64,000 nucleotides of DNA from a virus. The stretch is from positions 32,001 through 96,000 of the IMG/VR virus record IMGVR_UViG_3300042560_001826; one strand, 5' to 3'. The notes beneath the pieces are model-generated. The model was not told the DNA's origin. It searched no databases and saw only the letters and a list, made by a program, of their open reading frames with translations. Positions within the stretch are counted from its first letter, which is position 1. The number at the start of each line of letters is the position of its first letter. Positions 1,565 to 61,036 of this stretch are shown in pieces. A program made the position numbers and the translations under genes.

Positions 1565-1980
1565 TGGCTATACAGAATCAGCAAACGGGAATTACACATT
1601 TAGTCGTTTTAAATGGCGAAGAGATTACTGAGCATAATCGTATTTTTGATGGCGGATTTAAAATCAATTCAGAATCTGTTGAACTAGCAAATGGTAACAA
1701 AAGAAGATTTATTAAAAATAATAAAAACTCATATAGTTTATCTTTTCAATATCTTCCAAACTCTCATACGGAAACAATTGATGGAAGAAAAGCAAGAGAT
1801 TATTTACTGCAGCTGGCAAGAACTCCATCCAGCTTATCTTTATCAATAAAACTTGATCCGTCTGAACCGTTTTATAATACGACAGTATATGTTGATTCTT
1901 ATACCGAAACACTTATTCGCCGGGATATCCCGAATCAATGTGCGTATTATAATGTCAATATGAATTTAATTGAGGCATAA
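1564..1980 (+). CDS. Putative distal tail (Dit-like) protein
   Basis: 138 aa directly after the TMP; similar to the C-terminal domain of the next gene. Confidence 0.55.
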   Translation: MAIQNQQTGITHLVVLNGEEITEHNRIFDGGFKINSESVELANGNKRRFIKNNKNSYSLSFQYLPNSHTETIDGRKARDYLLQLARTPSSLSLSIKLDPSEPFYNTTVYVDSYTETLIRRDIPNQCAYYNVNMNLIEA

Positions 1981-31762: not shown

Positions 31763-32098
31763 ATGACACTCAAAATGAATAAAGTAGATAATTTCCCAGA
31801 AATCACTAGGGCTGGCAGACAGTCTGAAGATTTGCAGGCGATTATTAATGCTCTTCACGAATCGGTTAATACTGGACAAAAGTTTAGCCTTTTTGTTGAG
31901 CCTGGTAATCCATATAACTCAATGCAACAGCGTATTCGTGCGCAGGCAAAGAAGTTTGGATATAAGATTATCATTCGTTATGACTCAGCCAAGAAGGAAC
32001 TTTTCTTTAAGGCAAATCGTGGCGGTAATGCTTCGGTTTCTGCTAACGAAGTCGGCTCGGTTAAGAATAAGGCTACGACTACCGTAAAGTCCAAGTAA
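31763..32098 (+). CDS. Small basic protein, distant member of family A
   Basis: FPEITRAGRQS...RIRAQAKKFGYKIIIRY resembles 53587, 54436 and 55347; GGAGA RBS. Confidence 0.7.
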   Translation: MTLKMNKVDNFPEITRAGRQSEDLQAIINALHESVNTGQKFSLFVEPGNPYNSMQQRIRAQAKKFGYKIIIRYDSAKKELFFKANRGGNASVSANEVGSVKNKATTTVKSK

Positions 32099-52642: not shown

Positions 52643-53586
52643 CCAAAGTGGCCAGAAAACGCACTACGGAAGCGTACAAGGCTTTTTAAGTGCCAATGTG
52701 GTCGGGAATTGATTAATATCTATTTATAAGAACTGGAGAGAGATAAAGAATAAAAGCGGGTCTTAATTATCTTTCAGTATAGAGATAGAGAATCTATAGA
52801 GAGACTAGAGAATGAATAAGGCTGCGTCTACCTGAAATAAGTAGGATATGTCCCTTAGAAAATGTTGTGTTACGTCCCACAGTAAAGAGGCGAAAAGCGC
52901 GCAAATATTACGGTATTTTTATTAAATACTATGGTGTTTTATAAAATATAGGGCAAAAAGCCCTTAAAATGCATGAAAAAGCTTCACTTTTGCACAAGCT
53001 GGTATAAATATGTATGTATCTATCTCTCTATAGGTATAAAGAGACATTTAAACCCCGCCATAAAGGTATCCAGGAGATAAAAGAATGGGTAATAGATAAA
53101 TTCATTATAAATTAGTTCACTAATGAACTTATAGAACTTATCATTAAACTTCTCATAGAACTGATCATTGAATTCAGGCGGGAATAAGCCTACTGATTAC
53201 AGCACTGTAATTTGTAAGGAGCTAGACTAACCTTTGCCCCGGCAAAAAGAGACGGTAATGGATCCGTCATAAAGGTATTACTTTTTGTAAATCATTACAT
53301 AATAAAAAAGGTGATTTTTTTTATGTACTCTAAGTAATATTACGATGGTAATGTTACCAACCGTAATATTACACCTGGCAGATCACCTGACTTCGTTAGG
53401 GAATGGATCGACAAAAGGCTAAAACAAATCCTGGGCGATAAGATCGTCAAATATATCTTTTTTATATTTCTTTCAGGTAAGGTTGGTTTTTTTTAGATCA
53501 GCCGATAGCGTGAGTGTATCGGTTGCGAAACTGATGAAATAAATAAAAAAATAAAAAAATCAACAAAAAAGGAAAAAGGTAAAACA

Positions 53587-53907
53587 ATGGCTACGGAAAA
53601 GAATGACGATTTTGAAATCGTCAATGAAGCGGATTTGGAATTCGCTTCTCGTGGAAGAAAATCAAACATTAGCGATAGCGAAATCGCTAAGGTAAAAGAA
53701 ACATTGAAGAAAAATCCAAATGGTTGGGTTTTGTTCAATGGTAAGGCTATTCCTAATGGAATGACTAACGCTAAGGATATTCGTAACCATAAGGCTGCGA
53801 ATTCCGCAACGCTTAGGGCATTGGCTAAGAAATTGGGAATGAAAGCAGAAATTCGTTGGCATAAGGGAACTGTTCCAGCAGTTCGCTTTTCTAAGGTTTC
53901 TGCTTAG
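53587..53907 (+). CDS. Small basic protein, family A
   Basis: FEIVNEADLEFASRGRKS...LRALAKKLGMKAEIRW..GTVP; AAAGGT RBS. Confidence 0.8.
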   Translation: MATEKNDDFEIVNEADLEFASRGRKSNISDSEIAKVKETLKKNPNGWVLFNGKAIPNGMTNAKDIRNHKAANSATLRALAKKLGMKAEIRWHKGTVPAVRFSKVSA

Positions 53908-53938
53908 TAATTAGACAATAGTTTTCGCAACTGTTAGG

Positions 53939-53974
53939 GAATGGGTGGGGTAAAACCCACCCATTCTTTTTTTT
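53939..53974 (+). terminator. Rho-independent terminator
   Basis: GAATGGGTGGG-GTAAAA-CCCACCCATTC followed by a T run. Confidence 0.9.
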
Positions 53975-54435
53975 ATTTGTGTCGATCCCGGAATAAAGAT
54001 AAAGAATTACGTTACCGTAATCTTACAGATCCGCATTAGTGATTACATAAAGGATCTTCCAGGGATAAAGAAATAGATTAGAAAAATGCTTACTAAATTA
54101 TTTAGGTACGGTGTAATATTACCACGGTCGTAATGTTACAAAATTCTAACATTACACCCGCCCCGTAATATTACTTACTAAGTAAGATTACATAAAGGCT
54201 TACATAAAGGTAATATTTTATATAAAAGAAATGCTTACTCAAATGCTAAAAGAAGTCATGTAATGTTACCAGCCGTAATATTACCGAACTCCGGTCGAAA
54301 AAAAAACCTGGGCTTACGGCTGTGTAAGCTTTGACTTGGTGAGAGCCAAACTTACACAGCCGTAAGACACCTTCTGTTGCCCCGCCTAGTTAGGGCGGCG
54401 ATGGTCAATAATCCATCGGGGACGATTCACCTAAG

Positions 54436-54738
54436 TTACTTAGACGTAACGAGACGAACGGTAGGAACACCGTCGGTGGTGAAGGCAATGCGCACCTTCA
54501 CGCCGACAGACTTCGCGCATGCCCTGAGCATCGCGCTCACGGCAGCCTTGCGAGTCTTCGCGTTCGTACCCTTCGGGTCAACCTTGTACGAAGGCAGAGC
54601 CAAAACTTTCCCAGCGGGAAGTTTAGCGATAGCCTGCGCAAGCTTCGGGTCGGCGTTTGACTTGCGTCCACGCTTAGCGAAACTAAGGTCGCTCTCGTTC
54701 ACGATCTCGAACTCGGGTGTATCGTTGGTCTTAGCCAA
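54436..54738 (-). CDS. Small basic protein, family A
   Basis: FEIVNESDLSFAKRGRKS...LRACAKSVGVKVRIAF..DGVP; AAGGAG RBS, TTG start. Confidence 0.8.
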   Translation of the reverse strand: MAKTNDTPEFEIVNESDLSFAKRGRKSNADPKLAQAIAKLPAGKVLALPSYKVDPKGTNAKTRKAAVSAMLRACAKSVGVKVRIAFTTDGVPTVRLVTSK

Positions 54739-55346
54739 ACGTTACTCCTTTGTAAGAAAAGGTTACGGGTATGGATTAGACAGTAGTACCACTACTGCCC
54801 GACGCTGTAAGTTTTGATCTAGTGTGTTCGTTACCTTACACACGGGTAGGATTCGCTGACTGCCTACCTTCCCAAACTTACCGCCGTGTAACGGTAGTGC
54901 GACACCTGAACCTAGCCGAAGTGATCCCGAAGGATCACCGTTGCTCGCCCCGTAATTTTACGGGACCGCCTACTAGGTGACTCAGGTACGGGTCAACGCA
55001 CCGATAAGGATTCTAACAGATGATCGGCAAAAGCGGGCGGATAGTAAAACGGCTCAAATAAAAGACTACTGAATAGGTCGATAATAGGGTAAAGATAAAG
55101 TCCGGCGGCCCTGTAATCTTACAATTAGACTTTGATAAAGTTCCAGGACCGTAATCTTACATTGGAAAAATGTATTAAACTAATCTTACATAAGTGTAAT
55201 GTTACTGCGGGCGTAATCTTACGGTGAGTAAGGTTAACGCCCGCGTAATCTTACGCTAGTAATATTACATAGAGAAAATAAAAAAAATAAGTCGATAGCG
55301 CCGGGGCTCTTGCGAACCCCGACGCTACCTACTTGGCTTGGGGGAG

Positions 55347-55631
55347 TTAGTCTGCCAAGATGACTTGTGGCGTACCGTTGGCACTCCAACGGATCGCAAC
55401 CTTCTTGCCTGCCTGCTTGCCTGCCTGACGGATTTGGGCAGATACCTTAGCCTTCTCCGTCTTAGCCTTCGGACTGTTGGGGTTCACGGTCATTCCCGTG
55501 AGTTTCAGTCCTTGACCCTTCTTGAGCTTGGAAATTGCGCCTACGAGGGCAGGGCTCACGGTGGACTTACGCCCACGCTTGGAAAATTCCAAGTCCTGCT
55601 CGGAGACAATCTCAAAATTGTCTGTTGCCAT
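55347..55631 (-). CDS. Small basic protein, family A
   Basis: FEIVSEQDLEFSKRGRKS...IRQAGKQAGKKVAIRW..NGTP; hairpin terminator near 55296-55328. Confidence 0.8.
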   Translation of the reverse strand: MATDNFEIVSEQDLEFSKRGRKSTVSPALVGAISKLKKGQGLKLTGMTVNPNSPKAKTEKAKVSAQIRQAGKQAGKKVAIRWSANGTPQVILAD

Positions 55632-55821
55632 TGTTGTGGTATTCCCTTCTGAGCCTTACTTAGATTTGGGGCTCCGTTGTTGTTTAGAACACTATCCAAT
55701 AGGGGAAAACGACGCAAGTATGCGAACAGTCAAAAAACGCTGTATTTATTGGGGTTTTTGAGTGTGTGTCGTGAGTCACACGGTAGAAAAATGGAGATTT
55801 CCATAAATTACACGACCCTAC

Positions 55822-55835
55822 CGAACAAGTGTTTG
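55822..55835. promoter_or_regulatory. LexA (SOS) box CGAACAAGTGTTTG
   Basis: Matches CGAACRNRYGTTYG; upstream of the 55631 gene. Confidence 0.6.
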
Positions 55836-56044
55836 GTGAGGTATTGTGAGATTAGATCCCATAAACTTTCTTGTGTGTAAAATTACATTTACGAAAGAGT
55901 ACTAAATTTTTATTACATGTCAGTAATGTTACAGAGGGTGTAAGTTTTAGTCCCCCCAAAACTTACACCCTTCGTAATATTACCTAGATGAGCTATAAAA
56001 TTACACGGGCCGGTAAGCCCGTGTAACTTTACTGCCGTGTAATA

Positions 56045-56416
56045 CTAGGCTGTTGCCAAAACGCTAATGGCTTGGCGTATCGGATACCCATTCTGGATAA
56101 ATTGGTGGCGTATATCAACAGGCACCTGTGTAAGTTTACGCATCGCCTCATCTTGGGCATTTACGAGGGTAAGCATTTCCGCCAAATATTCCATAGCGGT
56201 ATGATTAGAAACTAACGGTAAACCGTGTTCGGTCATTTCCGCGAGCTTATCTAACGCGCCTGTAATTTTATCGGAGAGGTCATCACCGATTTCCTCGCGC
56301 CCGATTTCCAGAATGATACCGAGGTCGTGGAATATTAGGGATCGTGTTCTCGTAGCTTTACTAGTGAGAATTACGCCTTCCGCAAATCGTTCTTCGTTCA
56401 TTATTTTTTCCTCCAT
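56045..56416 (-). CDS. Hypothetical protein (stand-alone cassette)
   Basis: 123 aa; likely GGAGG RBS for ATG 56401; hairpins downstream. Confidence 0.55.
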   Translation of the reverse strand: MEEKIMNEERFAEGVILTSKATRTRSLIFHDLGIILEIGREEIGDDLSDKITGALDKLAEMTEHGLPLVSNHTAMEYLAEMLTLVNAQDEAMRKLTQVPVDIRHQFIQNGYPIRQAISVLATA

Positions 56417-56717
56417 AGTTCTTCGTAAAACGCTCGCCTCTTTTGTTGCCAGCGTGTAATTTTTGGGTGGATAATAAATGCTATTATTACTGACAGTAGG
56501 AATATCTTGATATTGGTCATACTTCCATTTTACAAAACTTACACAACCAATACAAGGATCACATTTTCCATAAAGGGTAAGGCCTAGTAATCTTACACAC
56601 TAAAAGAATGAGGCTTAGTAATATTACACCTGCCATACCGGTGCTCCATAAAGATCTAATTATGTAATATTACTGAGCTGTAATAATTGTTGCTAATGGT
56701 AAGATTACGCGATCACG

Positions 56718-56731
56718 CGAACAAATGTTTG
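56718..56731. promoter_or_regulatory. LexA (SOS) box CGAACAAATGTTTG
   Basis: Matches CGAACRNRYGTTYG; upstream of the TGTATGCT -10 element of the 56823 gene. Confidence 0.6.
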
Positions 56732-56822
56732 GTCGGCCGGTGATCGTCGATCGTGCCTATTGTTGCGATCGTGTATGCTTACTATGTCGGCAATTCCGCC
56801 GACACTCACGAAAGGCAAGGCA

Positions 56823-57239
56823 ATGAAGGCAAAGGCAAAAGCGTTCGCAAAGGCGATGAGTGTTCTCATCGGTAATGCGAACAAGGTACGCGCCAAAAAA
56901 GGCGTGAAGCGTATCTACGACAGCGCGGTACTCAATACCGCTATTGGTACGGCACTACAAAAAGGCGTTTTGCCAAAAGGCGAGAACGCTCGCCTATGGT
57001 GCTTCGCAAATGATGCCGTTGTTGTAGATGTTCGGACTATCGTTCACGAAAACATCGGTGATGAAGCATCGCACGAACGACCCGAAAATACTGTTCGTGC
57101 GAGACTCATCACGCTTGCGAAACTAAACAAAGACATCACGAAGCTTGCCTATGTTCGTTATCTCACGAACGGTACGCCTAGTGCCGATGATGCGAACAAC
57201 GACGACGCTTACAAAGTTTTCATTTTCCGTAAGCGTTAG
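56823..57239 (+). CDS. Basic protein, family B
   Basis: AKKGVKRIY...RPENTVRARLI...AYKVFIFRKR; GAAAGG RBS. Confidence 0.8.
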   Translation: MKAKAKAFAKAMSVLIGNANKVRAKKGVKRIYDSAVLNTAIGTALQKGVLPKGENARLWCFANDAVVVDVRTIVHENIGDEASHERPENTVRARLITLAKLNKDITKLAYVRYLTNGTPSADDANNDDAYKVFIFRKR

Positions 57240-57251
57240 AAACAAAAAGAG

Positions 57252-57284
57252 TGACGGGGCGGAAACGCCCCGTCATTTTTTTTT
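57252..57284 (+). terminator. Rho-independent terminator
   Basis: TGACGGGGCG-GAAA-CGCCCCGTCA followed by a T run. Confidence 0.9.
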
Positions 57285-57555
57285 GTATCCGTTTAGTCGA
57301 GTAGCCCGGACTAATTAGATTTCGTTCCATAAAAGGTACACGCTTGTAAGATTACAAAATCGTACTGAATTTTTATGCATAATGCTGCATGATTATGCGG
57401 GTGCGTCTCTACGCAAAGCTGTGAGCTCCACCCGCGTAATCTTACACCGTAAAGGGTTAGCTTTGTAATGTTACACAGCATGACTTGCATCGACTAATAG
57501 ATCGTGTAGACTATTGGTATCGGCAATCCTGCCGATCATCACGAAAGGTTACACA

Positions 57556-57762
57556 ATGTCCACATTTGAAACACACGACGAGATAATCCAGAAGGTTCGT
57601 ACCTTCTATCGGGAGACCTACAACATGTCCGAATCAGCCCTGCCATGCCATAACTGCATGTTTGAGCAAGAGCCAGACACCGAATGTGGCTATGTCTGGA
57701 TAACCTGCGAAGCCGACAACATGAATAATGATTCAGACGGTTGCAATTGGGGTAATGTTTAG
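57556..57762 (+). CDS. 68-aa Cys-rich acidic protein (stand-alone cassette)
   Basis: TTGCAT-16-TAGACT promoter, shared leader hairpin, GAAAGG RBS, terminator near 57779-57812. Confidence 0.7.
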   Translation: MSTFETHDEIIQKVRTFYRETYNMSESALPCHNCMFEQEPDTECGYVWITCEADNMNNDSDGCNWGNV

Positions 57763-58006
57763 TTACAACTAAGTAAGTAAAGCCCGGTCCTAACCCCCTG
57801 GGGCCGGGCTTTATTTATTATTACCTTATAGTAATCTTACCTATAATGATCTCCATAAAGATAATGAATACTAAACTTACTTATTAGTAATGTTACACGC
57901 CAACCGTAACATTACCGGGCTATCGGTTGCCCCGGTCGATCAAGGGTAGAAAGAGAAAGAACCCCACCTACCCTTTCGGGTAAGTGGGGTTCTTGTGTTC
58001 TGTTCG

Positions 58007-58525
58007 CTACTTCGTGCGAACGATAAACACTTTCTCGCACTCATTAGTCACGCCGTTCTCAAGCCATGACTCTTGAGCCATTCGTGCATCAACGGCCCAG
58101 ATAACGGTGAGATCGCCCAGAATGAGCTTACTCTTCTGCCAACTGATGAGCCTTGCACGAACGGCATTGTCGGCACGGTAGTTCGTAGCCTTACTGCACA
58201 CTTCGCTACGAAGAACGAACGGCACTTCGTTCTGGAGACAGAACTTCAGAAGTTGTGCTTTGCTCTTCTTGACGGGTTCGCCGTTCGCATCAACAGTCCA
58301 TGTCTCAAGAACGGGTTTCGTTGATGCAATAGAAACTGCTCGCATCAGAAGTTCAGCACCGTCATTCGTTGAGAATGGCTTTACTCTCTTCTTCTTATTC
58401 TTCTCATTGCAAGAAGAAAGTTTCTCAACGGACTTCTGAAAGAGTCCCGACGCTTTCGCGCCGAAAGACTGAACTTCTTTCTTTCTACCTTTCGCTACTT
58501 TCGTAGCCTTTCTCTTCTTCGCCAT
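58007..58525 (-). CDS. Basic protein, family B
   Basis: KKKRVKPF...RADNAVRARLI...EKVFIVRTK; terminator near 57957-57993. Confidence 0.8.
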   Translation of the reverse strand: MAKKRKATKVAKGRKKEVQSFGAKASGLFQKSVEKLSSCNEKNKKKRVKPFSTNDGAELLMRAVSIASTKPVLETWTVDANGEPVKKSKAQLLKFCLQNEVPFVLRSEVCSKATNYRADNAVRARLISWQKSKLILGDLTVIWAVDARMAQESWLENGVTNECEKVFIVRTK

Positions 58526-58835
58526 TGTGCTCTTACCTTTCGTGATAGTGGGCCGAATTGCCCACTAGTAGAAGTGTAACAGAACTAGGTGAGATTACAA
58601 CGATCCAATTTCTGCATTACAATTCACACTCATGCATGATCATGCATAAATGATTAGGAAATCACACTAAATTGTAATCTTACATGCATAATTATTCAGC
58701 GGGTGCGTCAGAAACGCGAAGCTGTCTGCTCCACCCGCCGTAACATTACGCCGTAAAGGGTTAGATCTAGTAACATTACACGGAAGTAAGGTAATAAAAA
58801 CCCCGCCCGGTTTTTAATCGAGCGGGGTTCTTTTA

Positions 58836-58937
58836 TTACTTGCGATTGCGGAAGTAAGCTAAAACGCTTACGCTGAACACAACAGCAAGAATGAGCGAGT
58901 AAGAAACATACTCACTAATGTTGAGGGTAAGTTGCAT
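58836..58937 (-). CDS. 33-aa single-pass membrane peptide (not in the ORF track)
   Basis: MQLTLNISEYVSYSLILAVVFSVSVLAYFRNRK; GAAAGGAG RBS; terminator near 58793-58837. Confidence 0.7.
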   Translation of the reverse strand: MQLTLNISEYVSYSLILAVVFSVSVLAYFRNRK

Positions 58938-59210
58938 TGTGATCTCCTTTCTTACTATCCAGCCTACAAACATTACACAGATAATACAAGCACCTATTAC
59001 CTCATAAAGTGTAAGGTATCGTAATATTACTCATTAAAAATGAGACACTCATAGACTCTAATAGCGTTGGTGGCGTAATGTTACACACACTAAAAATGAG
59101 AGAGGGATCTGTGTAAGGTTACTTGGTGTGTGCCCCGGTCGATCGGGCCGGGGGTACATAGCAGAACCCCCACCCCTTGCGGGGTGGGGGCTTGCGGGGG
59201 ATTGGGGGTG

Positions 59211-59660
59211 CTACTTGGTCTTGCGGTAGAGCAGAACCTCGTAGGCTTGGGGGTTCTTGGGATCAATCGCAGGGTTCCCCTTGCCATTGACTAGCACCCT
59301 CAGATAGCCCACCTTGCCGACCTGACTATCTACCTTGGTGAGGCTCAGTAGTCGGGCGTTGATGGTGAGGTCAGGTCGCTTGAATAGGTTCGGGGTGAGG
59401 TGGCGCACTACCTGACGGACATCCACCCTGACGGTATGCGGGCTAGTGCGTACCTCGTGCTTGGTGATAGCGGGCAGGCTCAGGGCTTGGGCTACTGCGG
59501 TGAGCAGATAGTTAGCACCCTTATCCTCGTAGTGACGCTTGACCCCACGCTTGGCGTTGAGGTCACGCTTGGCGGTGCGCTTGGCGGTAAGGGTGCGCAT
59601 AGTCTGCGTCACCTTAGCCTTGCTCACCCCCTTGCGGTTGGTCTTGGTCTTGGTTGCCAT
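59211..59660 (-). CDS. Basic protein, family B
   Basis: AKRGVKRHY...RPDLTINARLL...AYEVLLYRKTK; GAGAGG RBS; terminator near 59167-59190. Confidence 0.8.
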   Translation of the reverse strand: MATKTKTNRKGVSKAKVTQTMRTLTAKRTAKRDLNAKRGVKRHYEDKGANYLLTAVAQALSLPAITKHEVRTSPHTVRVDVRQVVRHLTPNLFKRPDLTINARLLSLTKVDSQVGKVGYLRVLVNGKGNPAIDPKNPQAYEVLLYRKTK

Positions 59661-59885
59661 TGGTACTGCCTCTCTGTGCTTGGGCTTGGCGGGATGCCTC
59701 ACCTCGTTGATAACTACCTTAGCCGATACCTAGCCCTATTCCTACCTCGTAGCCTTACCTCGCAAGATTACCTATCCGACAGAATTACCCTAAAACCCTT
59801 ATTCTATGCGGGTTCTAGCGTCGATCCTATGACGAAACTAATCGTTACCTAATCGTAACATAACAGATCACCCTATTGACCCCCC

Positions 59886-59899
59886 CGAACACAGGTTCG
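59886..59899. promoter_or_regulatory. LexA (SOS) box CGAACACAGGTTCG
   Basis: Perfect CGAAC-N4-GTTCG palindrome in the divergent intergenic region. Confidence 0.7.
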
Positions 59900-59973
59900 C
59901 CCTAGGGGTTAGATATAGCATAACCCTGCATAGAAATATACTAAAATTTTTGATACAATGGCGCGGAATGGCT

Positions 59974-60018
59974 TTCTAATGAAATTGCTTCTAATGAAAT
60001 TACTTCTAATGAAATTGC
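59974..60018 (+). repeat. Tandem repeat, 3 x 15 bp TTCTAATGAAATT(G/A)C
   Basis: Read directly. Confidence 0.95.
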
Positions 60019-60247
60019 CGGGAATAATTGCCGGGGTTAACTCTTCTCAGACAAAGGCGGGGTTGGATAGACCTATCTCGCTGGTAGTGGTGGGCGAGAT
60101 AGGCGCTCACAAAACCGGGATCTCCGGATCGGGATCACCGGTTGGAGCAACCCCGTAACAAGGAATCCGGGGTTATCGGGCGTAACTATAACGGTCCCAA
60201 GGTATTGGGATGCCCGATGGAAACTATTTCACATAAATAATTTCCGG
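60018..60247 (+). ncRNA. Candidate structured ncRNA carrying 16S and 23S rRNA motifs
   Basis: Four consecutive hairpins; 23/24 match to the 23S H69 region at 60181-60204; 16S motif CGTAACAAGG at 60154-60163. Confidence 0.6.
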
Positions 60248-60265
60248 GATTTATTCTACCAGATA

Positions 60266-61036
60266 TTACTCCCAATACCAACTATTTTCTTTTTCATTAT
60301 CTCTCCATCCACCGTAGGGAGCCGACTGCTCGGTTTGTGGAGCTTGTGGGGCTTTTAGGTCTTGTGGGTTTTGTGGGGCTTGTGTAGATTGTGTAGTACT
60401 TTTTTGGCCCACCACTTCATAATCATATCTGTCATCATCTGAGGTAAGCCATTTATCCCCGTCTTCTACATCCCATAATGTTTCATTAATTAACCGGTTT
60501 ATTAGATTCTGCCCCTTCTTTGTTGTGTATGAGGGATCCCATAATCTAACCCGGTTGTTTGGTTGGATTGCAAAGTTACCGTCTTTTCTTTCAATTACAT
60601 GACCGCATTTGTGTTGACCCGGATTTGTGGAATAGTTCGTATTGATTGTATTAATATCAGGACTATGCCAATCAAGGGTAAACATATATTTTCCATCAAT
60701 TTTATTCTTATGCCGATCGGTATATGTCATTGCCATACCCCGCATGTGCTCAAAGACCGTAACGGTGATGTACGACGAAAAGCTGTTCCACATCACCAAG
60801 TCTTTTAGATCCACCTCCGGAGCGTCTGGATGGGCGCAGAATGCATTTATAGGTGCTCTCCACCAAACCCCGCCATCTTCCATTAGAAAATGAAATACGG
60901 GCGCTCTGTCGGGGATTGAAGCTACACCGAAGATTACGCACGGGAACTTGAGGTTGTGACTGTCTTGTTGGTTTCTTAGAAAATTGCCACGCACATAGCA
61001 TTCAATAGGCGGAATTGAGGCGTTCAGTTCAGGCAT
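60266..61036 (-). CDS. Hypothetical phage protein
   Basis: 256-aa ORF; HKCGHVI...GNFAIQPNNR. Confidence 0.7.
   Translation of the reverse strand: MPELNASIPPIECYVRGNFLRNQQDSHNLKFPCVIFGVASIPDRAPVFHFLMEDGGVWWRAPINAFCAHPDAPEVDLKDLVMWNSFSSYITVTVFEHMRGMAMTYTDRHKNKIDGKYMFTLDWHSPDINTINTNYSTNPGQHKCGHVIERKDGNFAIQPNNRVRLWDPSYTTKKGQNLINRLINETLWDVEDGDKWLTSDDDRYDYEVVGQKSTTQSTQAPQNPQDLKAPQAPQTEQSAPYGGWRDNEKENSWYWE

Follow-up and report, generated by a model that had tools for sequence, protein, structure and literature searches.

Base-pairing RNAs and rRNA-related elements

Helix 69 of 23S rRNA, which forms bridge B2a, is a highly conserved and functionally central part of the ribosome, and its contacts include tRNAs, release factors and the recycling factor. 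In the mature 50S subunit the helix is base-paired, and its invasion by another RNA is not a given. Here we analyze an intergenic element related to this helix, located in a 64,000-nucleotide stretch of viral DNA that is called the window throughout (positions 32,001 to 96,000 of IMG/VR record IMGVR_UViG_3300042560_001826, a genome of 105 kb), together with comparable elements of other phages. Several described systems offer points of comparison.

The small RNAs CpxQ and SroC derive from 3' UTRs and act in trans by base pairing, using a seed and an intrinsic terminator. The phage elements resemble such RNAs in the conserved single-stranded seed placed 5' of a terminal hairpin, often with a U-tail, in the variable scaffold surrounding this invariant seed, and in an apparent origin either from a promoter of their own or from the 3' UTR of the upstream gene. 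They differ in that the seed is complementary to universally conserved 23S rRNA instead of mRNAs and is found in phages of many hosts; the window element is set apart further by a multi-hairpin body of ~140 nt in place of a plain seed and terminator. CopA/CopT and RNA I/RNA II are loop-presenting antisense RNAs. Similarly, several phage lineages show a second complementary segment in a large loop, and the window seed sits in an open internal loop. The presumed target of the phage family is, however, ribosomal and reached in trans, and no cis-encoded target is known for it, unless a plus-strand transcript is made. Motif 1 of the calicivirus TURBS is an mRNA sequence complementary to helix 26 of 18S rRNA that tethers the small subunit after termination. 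TURBS and the phage element are both viral RNA elements near a stop codon and complementary to conserved rRNA, but the former is eukaryotic, concerns the small subunit, lies upstream of the stop codon and serves re-initiation, whereas the latter concerns helix 69 and usually precedes a terminator. At the DNA level, the phage core overlaps the I-CeuI recognition region of 23S rDNA (~1911–1936), and an HNH gene adjoins it in one phage family. Unlike an I-CeuI site, it is accompanied by no LAGLIDADG gene or intron, and its orientation, covariation and 3'-UTR placement point to the RNA level.

Finally, YrlA and Y RNAs, which are bound by Rsr (Ro60), share with the window element the character of small structured phage or bacterial RNAs imitating translation RNAs, often among tRNA genes. 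The Ro60 docking motif of Y RNA reads GNCGAA(N)G / GGUCCGA (Chen et al. 2014, PMC4201824). Neither GNCGAAN0-1G nor GGUCCGA occurs on either strand of 59940–60300, the YrlA model RF02553 has no match at the element (its weak genome matches fall on tRNA genes or elsewhere), and the phage genome contains no TROVE (Ro60) gene, which together speak against a Y RNA/Ro60 partner. A DUF2828 search of the same genome gave no match, as did its control. The window element also differs from these RNAs by the absence of a tRNA-like domain and by the antisense character of the family evidence.

The 23S rRNA match and the layout of the locus

The locus was initially annotated, from its letters alone, as a candidate phage-encoded plus-strand RNA mimicking rRNA and displaying 23S helix 69 and a 16S 3'-end motif. 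The strings on which this annotation relied are all present: CGTAACTATAACGGTCCCAAGGTA at 60181–60204, CGTAACAAGG at 60154–60163, GGATCACC at 60132–60139, GGTTGGAT at 60061–60068, and the extended −10 TG-A-TACAAT (TGATACAAT) at 59951–59959, inside a conserved plus-strand promoter-like site. The LexA box reported upstream is likewise found, as the Cheo-type LexA-like box GAAC-N4-GTTC CGAACACAGGTTCG at 59886–59899. The parts of the locus are:

59931–59959, plus strand: promoter-like TAGAAA-17-TACAAT with TG, a consensus match that would give the 23S-like motif in sense
59974–60018: three tandem copies of the 15-nt unit TTCTAATGAAATTGC, with a copy number that differs among relatives
60072–60103: perfect 10-bp hairpin CCTATCTCGC/GCGAGATAGG, from sequence and folds
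60106–60143, minus strand: terminator-like end made of a G+C-rich hairpin (60113–60143) and then UUUUGUG, from sequence and fold
60149–60174, minus strand: hairpin AACCCCG/CGGGGUU with an invariant 12-nt loop (plus strand UAACAAGGAAUC), holding the 10-mer of 16S 1496–1505
60175–60218, minus strand: closing stem 60175–60182/60211–60218 around the anti-23S segment, from the fold, unpaired probabilities and a compensatory change
60177–60204, minus strand: anti-23S segment, its RNA reading UACCUUGGGACCGUUAUAGUUACGCCCG, with the family-invariant core at 60186–60201
60219–60245, minus strand: first hairpin past the stop codon of the upstream gene, read from the alignment
60253–60281, minus strand: promoter-like TTGGTA-17-TAGAAT with extended TG, a consensus match only, overlapping the end of the upstream gene
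60266–61036, minus strand: upstream co-oriented gene, phrog_3704, with the element 62 nt past its stop codon

By BLAST, positions 60177–60204 are identical to 23S rRNA 1905–1932 (E. coli rrnH numbering) at 26 of 28 nucleotides, the differences being C1908G and U1926C. Within this segment, 60181–60197 is an exact 17-mer of 23S 1909–1925 of E. coli rrnH; by our own calculation, ~1e-4 exact 17-mers would be expected between 270 nt and the rRNAs. Judged by this expectation and by the retention of the core across phages, the long 23S match is beyond chance, in agreement with the initial view that the 24-mer is unlikely to be fortuitous. Allowing up to 2 mismatches, the motif occurs once in the 105-kb genome.

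An assembly chimera with rRNA is excluded, because contigs from independent lake metagenome runs cross the element unchanged (59300–60748 in X2, 60099–60578 in X3 and 59898–60417 in X6). A captured rRNA fragment is ruled out as well: no continuous 23S alignment extends past the short motif, BLAST finding only the 28-mer (26/28), and the bacterial LSU model RF02541 has zero matches in the 105-kb virus record. As the initial annotation had anticipated for BLASTn and Infernal searches, rRNA alignment is limited to the short motif and homologues are present in other phages. One putative RNA run yielded only 31-mers of 23S rRNA (2 mismatches) and a diverged relative of the neighboring gene.

The 16S-like strings have a different standing. 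The 10-mer at 60154–60163 does equal 16S 1496–1505 of E. coli rrnH, and the loop containing it matches 16S 1496–1511 at 14 of 16 positions; this match overlaps a 9-mer, in the complement of the hairpin 60149–60174, that equals 23S 1938–1946, and each of the two is near chance level. Exact matches of at least 10 nt to 16S plus 23S rRNA number three, where shuffles give 1.7 (P=0.26). Close relatives have lost or altered GGATCACC and GGTTGGAT, the GTAACAAGG hairpin is confined to the window's own type (WIN type), and none of the 16S-like 8- to 10-mers is conserved past three near relatives. The 16S motifs are thus rejected as functional parts, being chance-level and unconserved; the initial annotation had allowed that they might be fortuitous, and its displayed 16S 3'-end motif is not upheld.

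Structure of the window element

The region folds strongly on both strands, with z-scores of −3.9 on the plus and −5.5 on the minus strand, and the run of hairpins noted initially is real by this measure. The proposed outer stem joining 60018–60024 to 60241–60247 contains a G-G mismatch as written; shifted by one base to 60240–60246, it can be drawn by hand with 7 pairs including one G-U, and RNAfold predicts it in neither register. On the minus strand, the closing stem 60175–60182/60211–60218 encloses a small hairpin at 60195–60210 (UCCCAA-loop-UUGGGA), of which the 4-nt loop varies freely. The UUGGGA part of the anti-23S segment is sequestered in this small hairpin, and unpaired probabilities leave CCGUUAUAGUUAC mostly single-stranded on the minus strand.

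A metagenome scan for WIN-type copies returned two further sequences only, too few for strong covariation. Among the four WIN-type sequences, the closing stem shows one compensatory change, from C-G to U-A, in the relative L284. In the hairpin 60219–60245, two independent variants produce U-G or G-U pairs on the minus strand and C-A mismatches on the plus strand. Both hexamers of the minus-strand promoter-like site are kept in all four sequences and the UUUUGUG tail in three; a strict terminator scan did not call the 60106–60143 site. The plus-strand promoter-like site at 59931–59959 belongs to a block of ~95 nt conserved in at least 12 related loci.

The upstream gene 60266–61036 has no Pfam match; phrog_3704 members are labelled PurM-like or ferredoxin in cyanophage and pelagiphage records. 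Pfam and PHROG searches of the neighboring proteins gave no functional link to the element. An array of cassettes adjoins the element in the window.

A widespread family of putative phage RNAs

An exact scan of viral contigs found the 16-mer core CTATAACGGTCCYAAG in more than 119 viral stretches, representing 88 distinct contexts among the matches listed. It is nearly always intergenic and also occurs in cultured Vibrio phages. This raw count was not used as evidence because, by our own estimate, a collection of this size should contain many chance copies of a 16-mer; the weight rests instead on architecture compared with a bacterial control. The control was the same 16-mer in its C variant, with 68 distinct contexts from 69 matches in 185,579 bacterial and archaeal species genomes, almost all of them encoding FYNGPK, plus two interrupted 23S genes. 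A strong hairpin begins within a few bases of the 3' end of the antisense motif in 53 of the 84 viral contexts listed versus 13 of 68 bacterial ones, and the motif falls within long open frames in 9/84 and 63/68 cases, respectively. The mean free-energy difference between antisense and sense folds is −9.0 kcal/mol for the viral contexts listed versus −0.4 for the bacterial contexts.

In an alignment of 31 members, compensatory double changes affect 16 of 17 hairpin pairs. Many hairpin pairs of the family are G-U on the antisense strand, hence A-C on the sense strand, and a U-run follows about half of the hairpins. Because the motif follows a gene of the opposite strand and precedes a hairpin that folds only on that strand, we read the family as antisense RNA. 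The invariant core has the RNA form CUURGGACCGUUAUAG; window positions 60186–60201 carry the C variant, as do L002-4, L006-7, L010-11 and the cultured Vibrio phages. For the window type itself, the covarying stems foreseen in the initial annotation are represented by the single compensatory change seen in its four sequences.

The element is found in at least eight unrelated gene contexts, where the neighboring gene runs in the direction of the antisense motif and stops 17–80 nt short of it. These comprise positions flanked by a small HNH gene and by a gene for a RuvC-like resolvase (33 loci), after the gene of the RNR large subunit in relatives of phi14:2, a crAss-like Cellulophaga phage, after the major capsid gene, after the tail tube gene, after the spanin gene, upstream of tRNA genes in tRNA clusters, in the window's lineage and in cultured Vibrio phages. 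Of the cultured relatives identified by way of neighboring proteins, phage phi14:2 itself has only a match with two mismatches, and the genomes of Streptomyces phage Jay2Jay and Pelagibacter phage HTVC033P contain no motif match. The window element fits the family placement, being intergenic, single-copy and 62 nt past the co-oriented gene 60266–61036. When relatives were gathered through this flanking gene, 16 of the 80 loci obtained carried CTATAACGG... on the strand opposite to the gene.

Among cultured viruses, TAACTATAACGGTCCCAAGG is present in unannotated intergenic DNA of Vibrio phages PWH3a-P1, qdvp001, R16F, 10AMN and P018-4, with 20 nt identical to the window. The element of PWH3a-P1, which infects Vibrio natriegens, is located at ~80,850–81,000 of NC_020863.1. 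In R16F, the antisense motif is flanked on one side by a minus-strand gene and on the other by two tRNA genes that ARAGORN assigns to the minus strand, and the region folds at −32 kcal/mol in antisense versus −19 in sense. L002-4 and R16F share the window's 20–24-mer and place the antisense motif and its hairpin directly 5' of co-oriented tRNA genes. L163 and L013, which also carry this 20–24-mer, have sigma-70 promoters on the antisense strand matching consensus at 11/12 and 10/12 positions; close relatives of this kind have their terminators on that strand as well.

The window represents an atypical member. A covariance model of the family (R1) matches its minus strand at 60170–60213 with 22 bits and E=1e-4, over the motif only and with the hairpin deleted. 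The canonical hairpin immediately past the motif is absent from the window; the hairpin 60149–60174 follows the motif after an 11-nt spacer, as in L002-type members. Rfam 15 contained no family matching the window or the family members at the gathering threshold or at E<=10, and our literature searches found no description of such a phage RNA. These observations suggest that the element belongs to a widespread and uncatalogued phage RNA family antisense to 23S helix 69–70.

Complementarity to 23S rRNA across lineages

The invariant stretch CUUAGGACCGUUAUAG is the complement of 23S 1914–1929, which covers the loop of helix 69, its 3' strand and the junction to helix 70. Past the core, identity to 23S totals 16 to 31 nt and extends in different directions according to lineage: members of the L155/L109 type reach 1911–1941, L002 1907–1934 and the window 1905–1932. 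The minus-strand RNA UACCUUGGGACCGUUAUAGUUACGCCCG is complementary to 23S 1905–1932 with one G-U pair (1926) and one mismatch (1908), and the predicted duplex has a free energy of −59.7 kcal/mol versus −35.4 ± 3.9 for shuffles (duplexfold).

Substitutions in the core and its 3' extension follow a pattern. Five of them (U1917C, G1922A, U1926C, G1930A and G1933A) would turn into G-U pairs with 23S in an antisense RNA, A1928G being the sole exception. Wobble compatibility amounts to ~5/6 in the core plus 3' extension and to ~5/9 when peripheral positions are included, a bias that is suggestive of antisense pairing with 23S. Position 1926 is U in enterobacterial and Paenibacillus 23S, and almost no bacterial 23S has C among the 185,579 species genomes; Vibrio 23S presumably has U as well. 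On this comparison, the C found at 1926 is not explained by the 23S of any common bacterial group, and the Vibrio phages carry it too.

Several lineages, Vibrio phages among them, display another segment derived from 23S within the large loop of their terminator hairpin. Its sense sequence is AGRTAGCGA, and the corresponding RNA UCGCUAYCU is the complement of 23S 1929–1937. The resulting two-part permuted arrangement seen in some lineages would be topologically awkward for a simple duplex.

A proposed minus-strand RNA pairing with 23S rRNA

We consider the window element to be a divergent and elaborated member of a set of phage anti-23S small RNAs or 3'-UTR elements, expressed from the minus strand and pairing with 23S rRNA, with a probability of roughly 0.5 for this reading as a whole. 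Its strand component is somewhat firmer, the minus strand being probably the functional one in the window. An exclusive role of the plus strand there is improbable, and what remains would fall to both strands or to a DNA-level role.

Under the antisense reading, we infer that the minus-strand RNA would originate as the 3' UTR of gene 60266–61036 or from the promoter-like site 60281–60253, and would extend over ~140 nt from 60246 to ~60106. It would present 24–28 nt complementary to 23S 1905–1932, with CCGUUAUAGUUAC open as a seed, and could pair with helix 69–70 of free 50S subunits or of 23S assembly intermediates. Such pairing might obstruct or modulate bridge B2a and the joining of subunits, or might tether 50S subunits.

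Alternative readings

The alternative with the best remaining standing, although still doubtful, keeps the logic of the initial annotation: an RNA of ~290 nt transcribed from the plus strand (from 59931–59959 to ~60250) would imitate 23S 1905–1932 in sense and divert rRNA-directed nucleases, toxins or modifying enzymes as a decoy, perhaps in the manner of a Y-RNA-like Ro60 partner. It draws on the plus-strand promoter-like site with its extended −10, within the block conserved throughout the lineage, on the multi-hairpin body, unlike that of simple seed-plus-terminator members, and on three G-U pairs that favor the plus strand in WIN-type hairpins. Each of these pairs is terminal, closes a multiloop or is not kept in L284, and the initial argument from G-U pairs is matched by the two minus-favoring wobble changes of 60219–60245. 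Nor does the conserved plus-strand block imply sense transcription of the motif, since L010, L015, L017 and L074 share it and yet have hairpins folding in antisense; across the family, these lineages included, the folded strand co-oriented with the upstream gene is the antisense one, which speaks against a plus-strand RNA displaying helix 69. The helix 69 stem is itself not reproduced, because its 5' strand reads GGGCG and not GGCCG, and the plus-strand minimum free-energy fold puts the loop sequence into an internal loop. The unconserved 16S motifs, together with the lack of a Ro60 docking motif, of a YrlA match at the element and of a TROVE gene, also speak against the mimic. What stands of the initial annotation is a non-random 23S match within a conserved, structured phage element that is not rRNA; the plus-strand mimic, the helix 69 stem and the 16S motifs are not supported.

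Slightly less probable is convergent transcription, in which the anti-23S RNA of the minus strand and a 23S-like RNA of the plus strand would form a cis-antisense pair, one serving as sponge or timer for the other. Type I toxin–antitoxin systems and plasmid copy-control pairs provide a precedent for such sense/antisense couples. Facing promoter-like sites with extended −10 elements, both kept in the four WIN-type sequences, are what this arrangement calls for; a plus/minus promoter pair also flanks the element of L013, and the wobble evidence is divided between hairpins. The window's promoter sites are, however, consensus matches only, and most family members reside in co-directional operons that leave no room for an opposing promoter.

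A further unlikely reading holds that a protein or RNase recognizes the motif for 3'-end processing or stability, the 23S complementarity being a by-product. The fixed position immediately ahead of a 3' hairpin within 3' UTRs, an AGGA sequence and an A/U-rich stretch would suit such a role. It leaves aside, however, the independent extension of complementarity to 22–31 nt, which tracks the rRNA sequence, and the second rRNA-derived segments in loops. Moreover, phages with widely differing hosts keep the motif unchanged, so that its partner should be a universal one.

Least probable of all is a DNA-level site, namely an I-CeuI-like target or landing pad for a homing endonuclease or a cassette-shuffling recombinase, with the hairpin incidental or acting as single-stranded DNA: for it speak the coincidence of the core with the I-CeuI region, the HNH gene adjoining the motif and the hypervariable next slot in the largest family, the HNH gene ~400 nt away in R16F, the cassette array next to the window element and the two bacterial 23S genes interrupted right after ...GGTCCCAAG, but most contexts, the window included, have no nearby endonuclease, the motif is intact with or without the HNH gene, and no interrupted copies were seen. 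An RNA is favored over a DNA site because of the fixed orientation to genes, the post-stop position, the strand-specific G-U pairs and the U-runs. The reading as a homing-endonuclease target site fails in that no endonuclease flanks the window element and orientation relative to genes is fixed family-wide.

Implications for phages and their hosts

For the window, the first reading most likely has to be inverted in both strand and logic, the element being an antisense RNA rather than a mimic. More broadly, and more tentatively than for the window element itself, phages of many hosts may encode an RNA that pairs with host helix 69–70 and controls subunit joining or assembly, or marks rRNA for cleavage or repair; in the window's lineage, it may be sponged by a convergent plus-strand, 23S-like transcript. 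The retention of a seed complementary to helix 69 in crAss-like phages, lake siphoviruses and cultured Vibrio phages points to RNA–rRNA pairing on host ribosomes. Since the element occurs in the culturable Vibrio phages PWH3a-P1, qdvp001 and R16F, this idea is directly testable.

The comparison with described systems suggests a further form of base-pairing small RNA, one aimed at ribosomal RNA, of which we found no description in the literature searched. Host shut-off, ribosome reprogramming, and rRNA turnover or repair are candidate roles that it may play, among which sequence cannot discriminate. Such a seed would constitute a natural template for antisense inhibitors of helix 69 and, if the antisense reading is true, these phages would possess an RNA-only system acting directly on ribosomal RNA.

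Sequences upstream of the element

A block of about 95 nt upstream of the hairpin-rich element is conserved between the window (59870-59962) and loci L006, L007, L010, L011, L013, L015-L021 and L074. It carries, in order, ATTGACC, a Cheo-type LexA-like box (CGAACAnAGGTTCG), GCATAACCCT and ATATATACTCAAATTTTT, then G-rich repeats, and in some relatives iteron-like repeats (CCGCATAATGACCAA) lie immediately upstream. A regulated promoter and an origin are both possible roles for this block. A 15-nt unit (TTCTAATGAAATTGC) is repeated in tandem in the window, and its copy number in close relatives is one to about 1.5.

59886-59899, Cheo-type LexA-like box
59974-60018, three tandem copies of the 15-nt unit

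Beside the element, window positions 53300-59900 have a G+C content of 45-48%, compared with 35% for the genome, and contain few open reading frames. The small stand-alone genes found there face either way, and numerous GTAAYNTTAC palindromes and CATAAAG motifs lie between them. At least three of these cassettes encode paralogues of one small protein, which share ..FEIV.E.DL.F..RGRKS.. although their base composition differs.

53587-53907, + strand, small-protein paralogue 1
55347-55631, - strand, small-protein paralogue 2
near 54400-54736, - strand, small-protein paralogue 3 (TTG start)

Motif contexts in other genomes

The HNH-motif-RuvC family comprises about 30 loci in addition to L085, L100 and L161, and its slot adjoining the 23S-like motif is hypervariable. 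Some members have a small HNH endonuclease gene in this slot, encoded on the antisense strand of the motif; in others the slot is occupied, on the opposite strand, by unrelated genes whose function is unknown (clusters c16, c31, c38 and c44). The genes flanking this slot (RuvC-like, ParB-like, PAPS-reductase-like and PD-(D/E)XK) are constant across the family.

Two 23S rRNA genes carry, as does the window motif, C at position 1926 (E. coli numbering), one in an Omnitrophota MAG (L258) and one in a Microcoleaceae MAG (L270). The former matches 23S as far as ...GGTCCCAAG and diverges abruptly thereafter, which suggests that the classical I-CeuI-type insertion point of this gene is occupied by an intron or intervening sequence.

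Another compared locus, L282, belongs to Vibrio phage vB_VpaM_R16F (OP793884.1, 93201-93373), whose record lists tRNA-Arg then tRNA-Met on the + strand. ARAGORN called the pair as tRNA-Met(cat) and tRNA-Arg(tct) and assigned both to the opposite strand. The strand annotation in the deposited record appears to be wrong.

Structural variants of the element

Directly 5' of the sense motif, locus L013 differs from L019 by an additional 18-nt mini-hairpin (CATCCTTGCGGATGGTTA) between GTTAA and CTATAACGG. A duplicated GTTA flanks this mini-hairpin, which resembles the product of a small insertion within the element. In the sub-lineage formed by L017, L020, L021 and L136, the antisense motif itself pairs with the downstream UGUGUAGCGGUCUUUU, forming the 5' side of a long basal stem; the seed, the presumed unpaired stretch of the proposed base-pairing RNA, would therefore be masked inside a canonical terminator.
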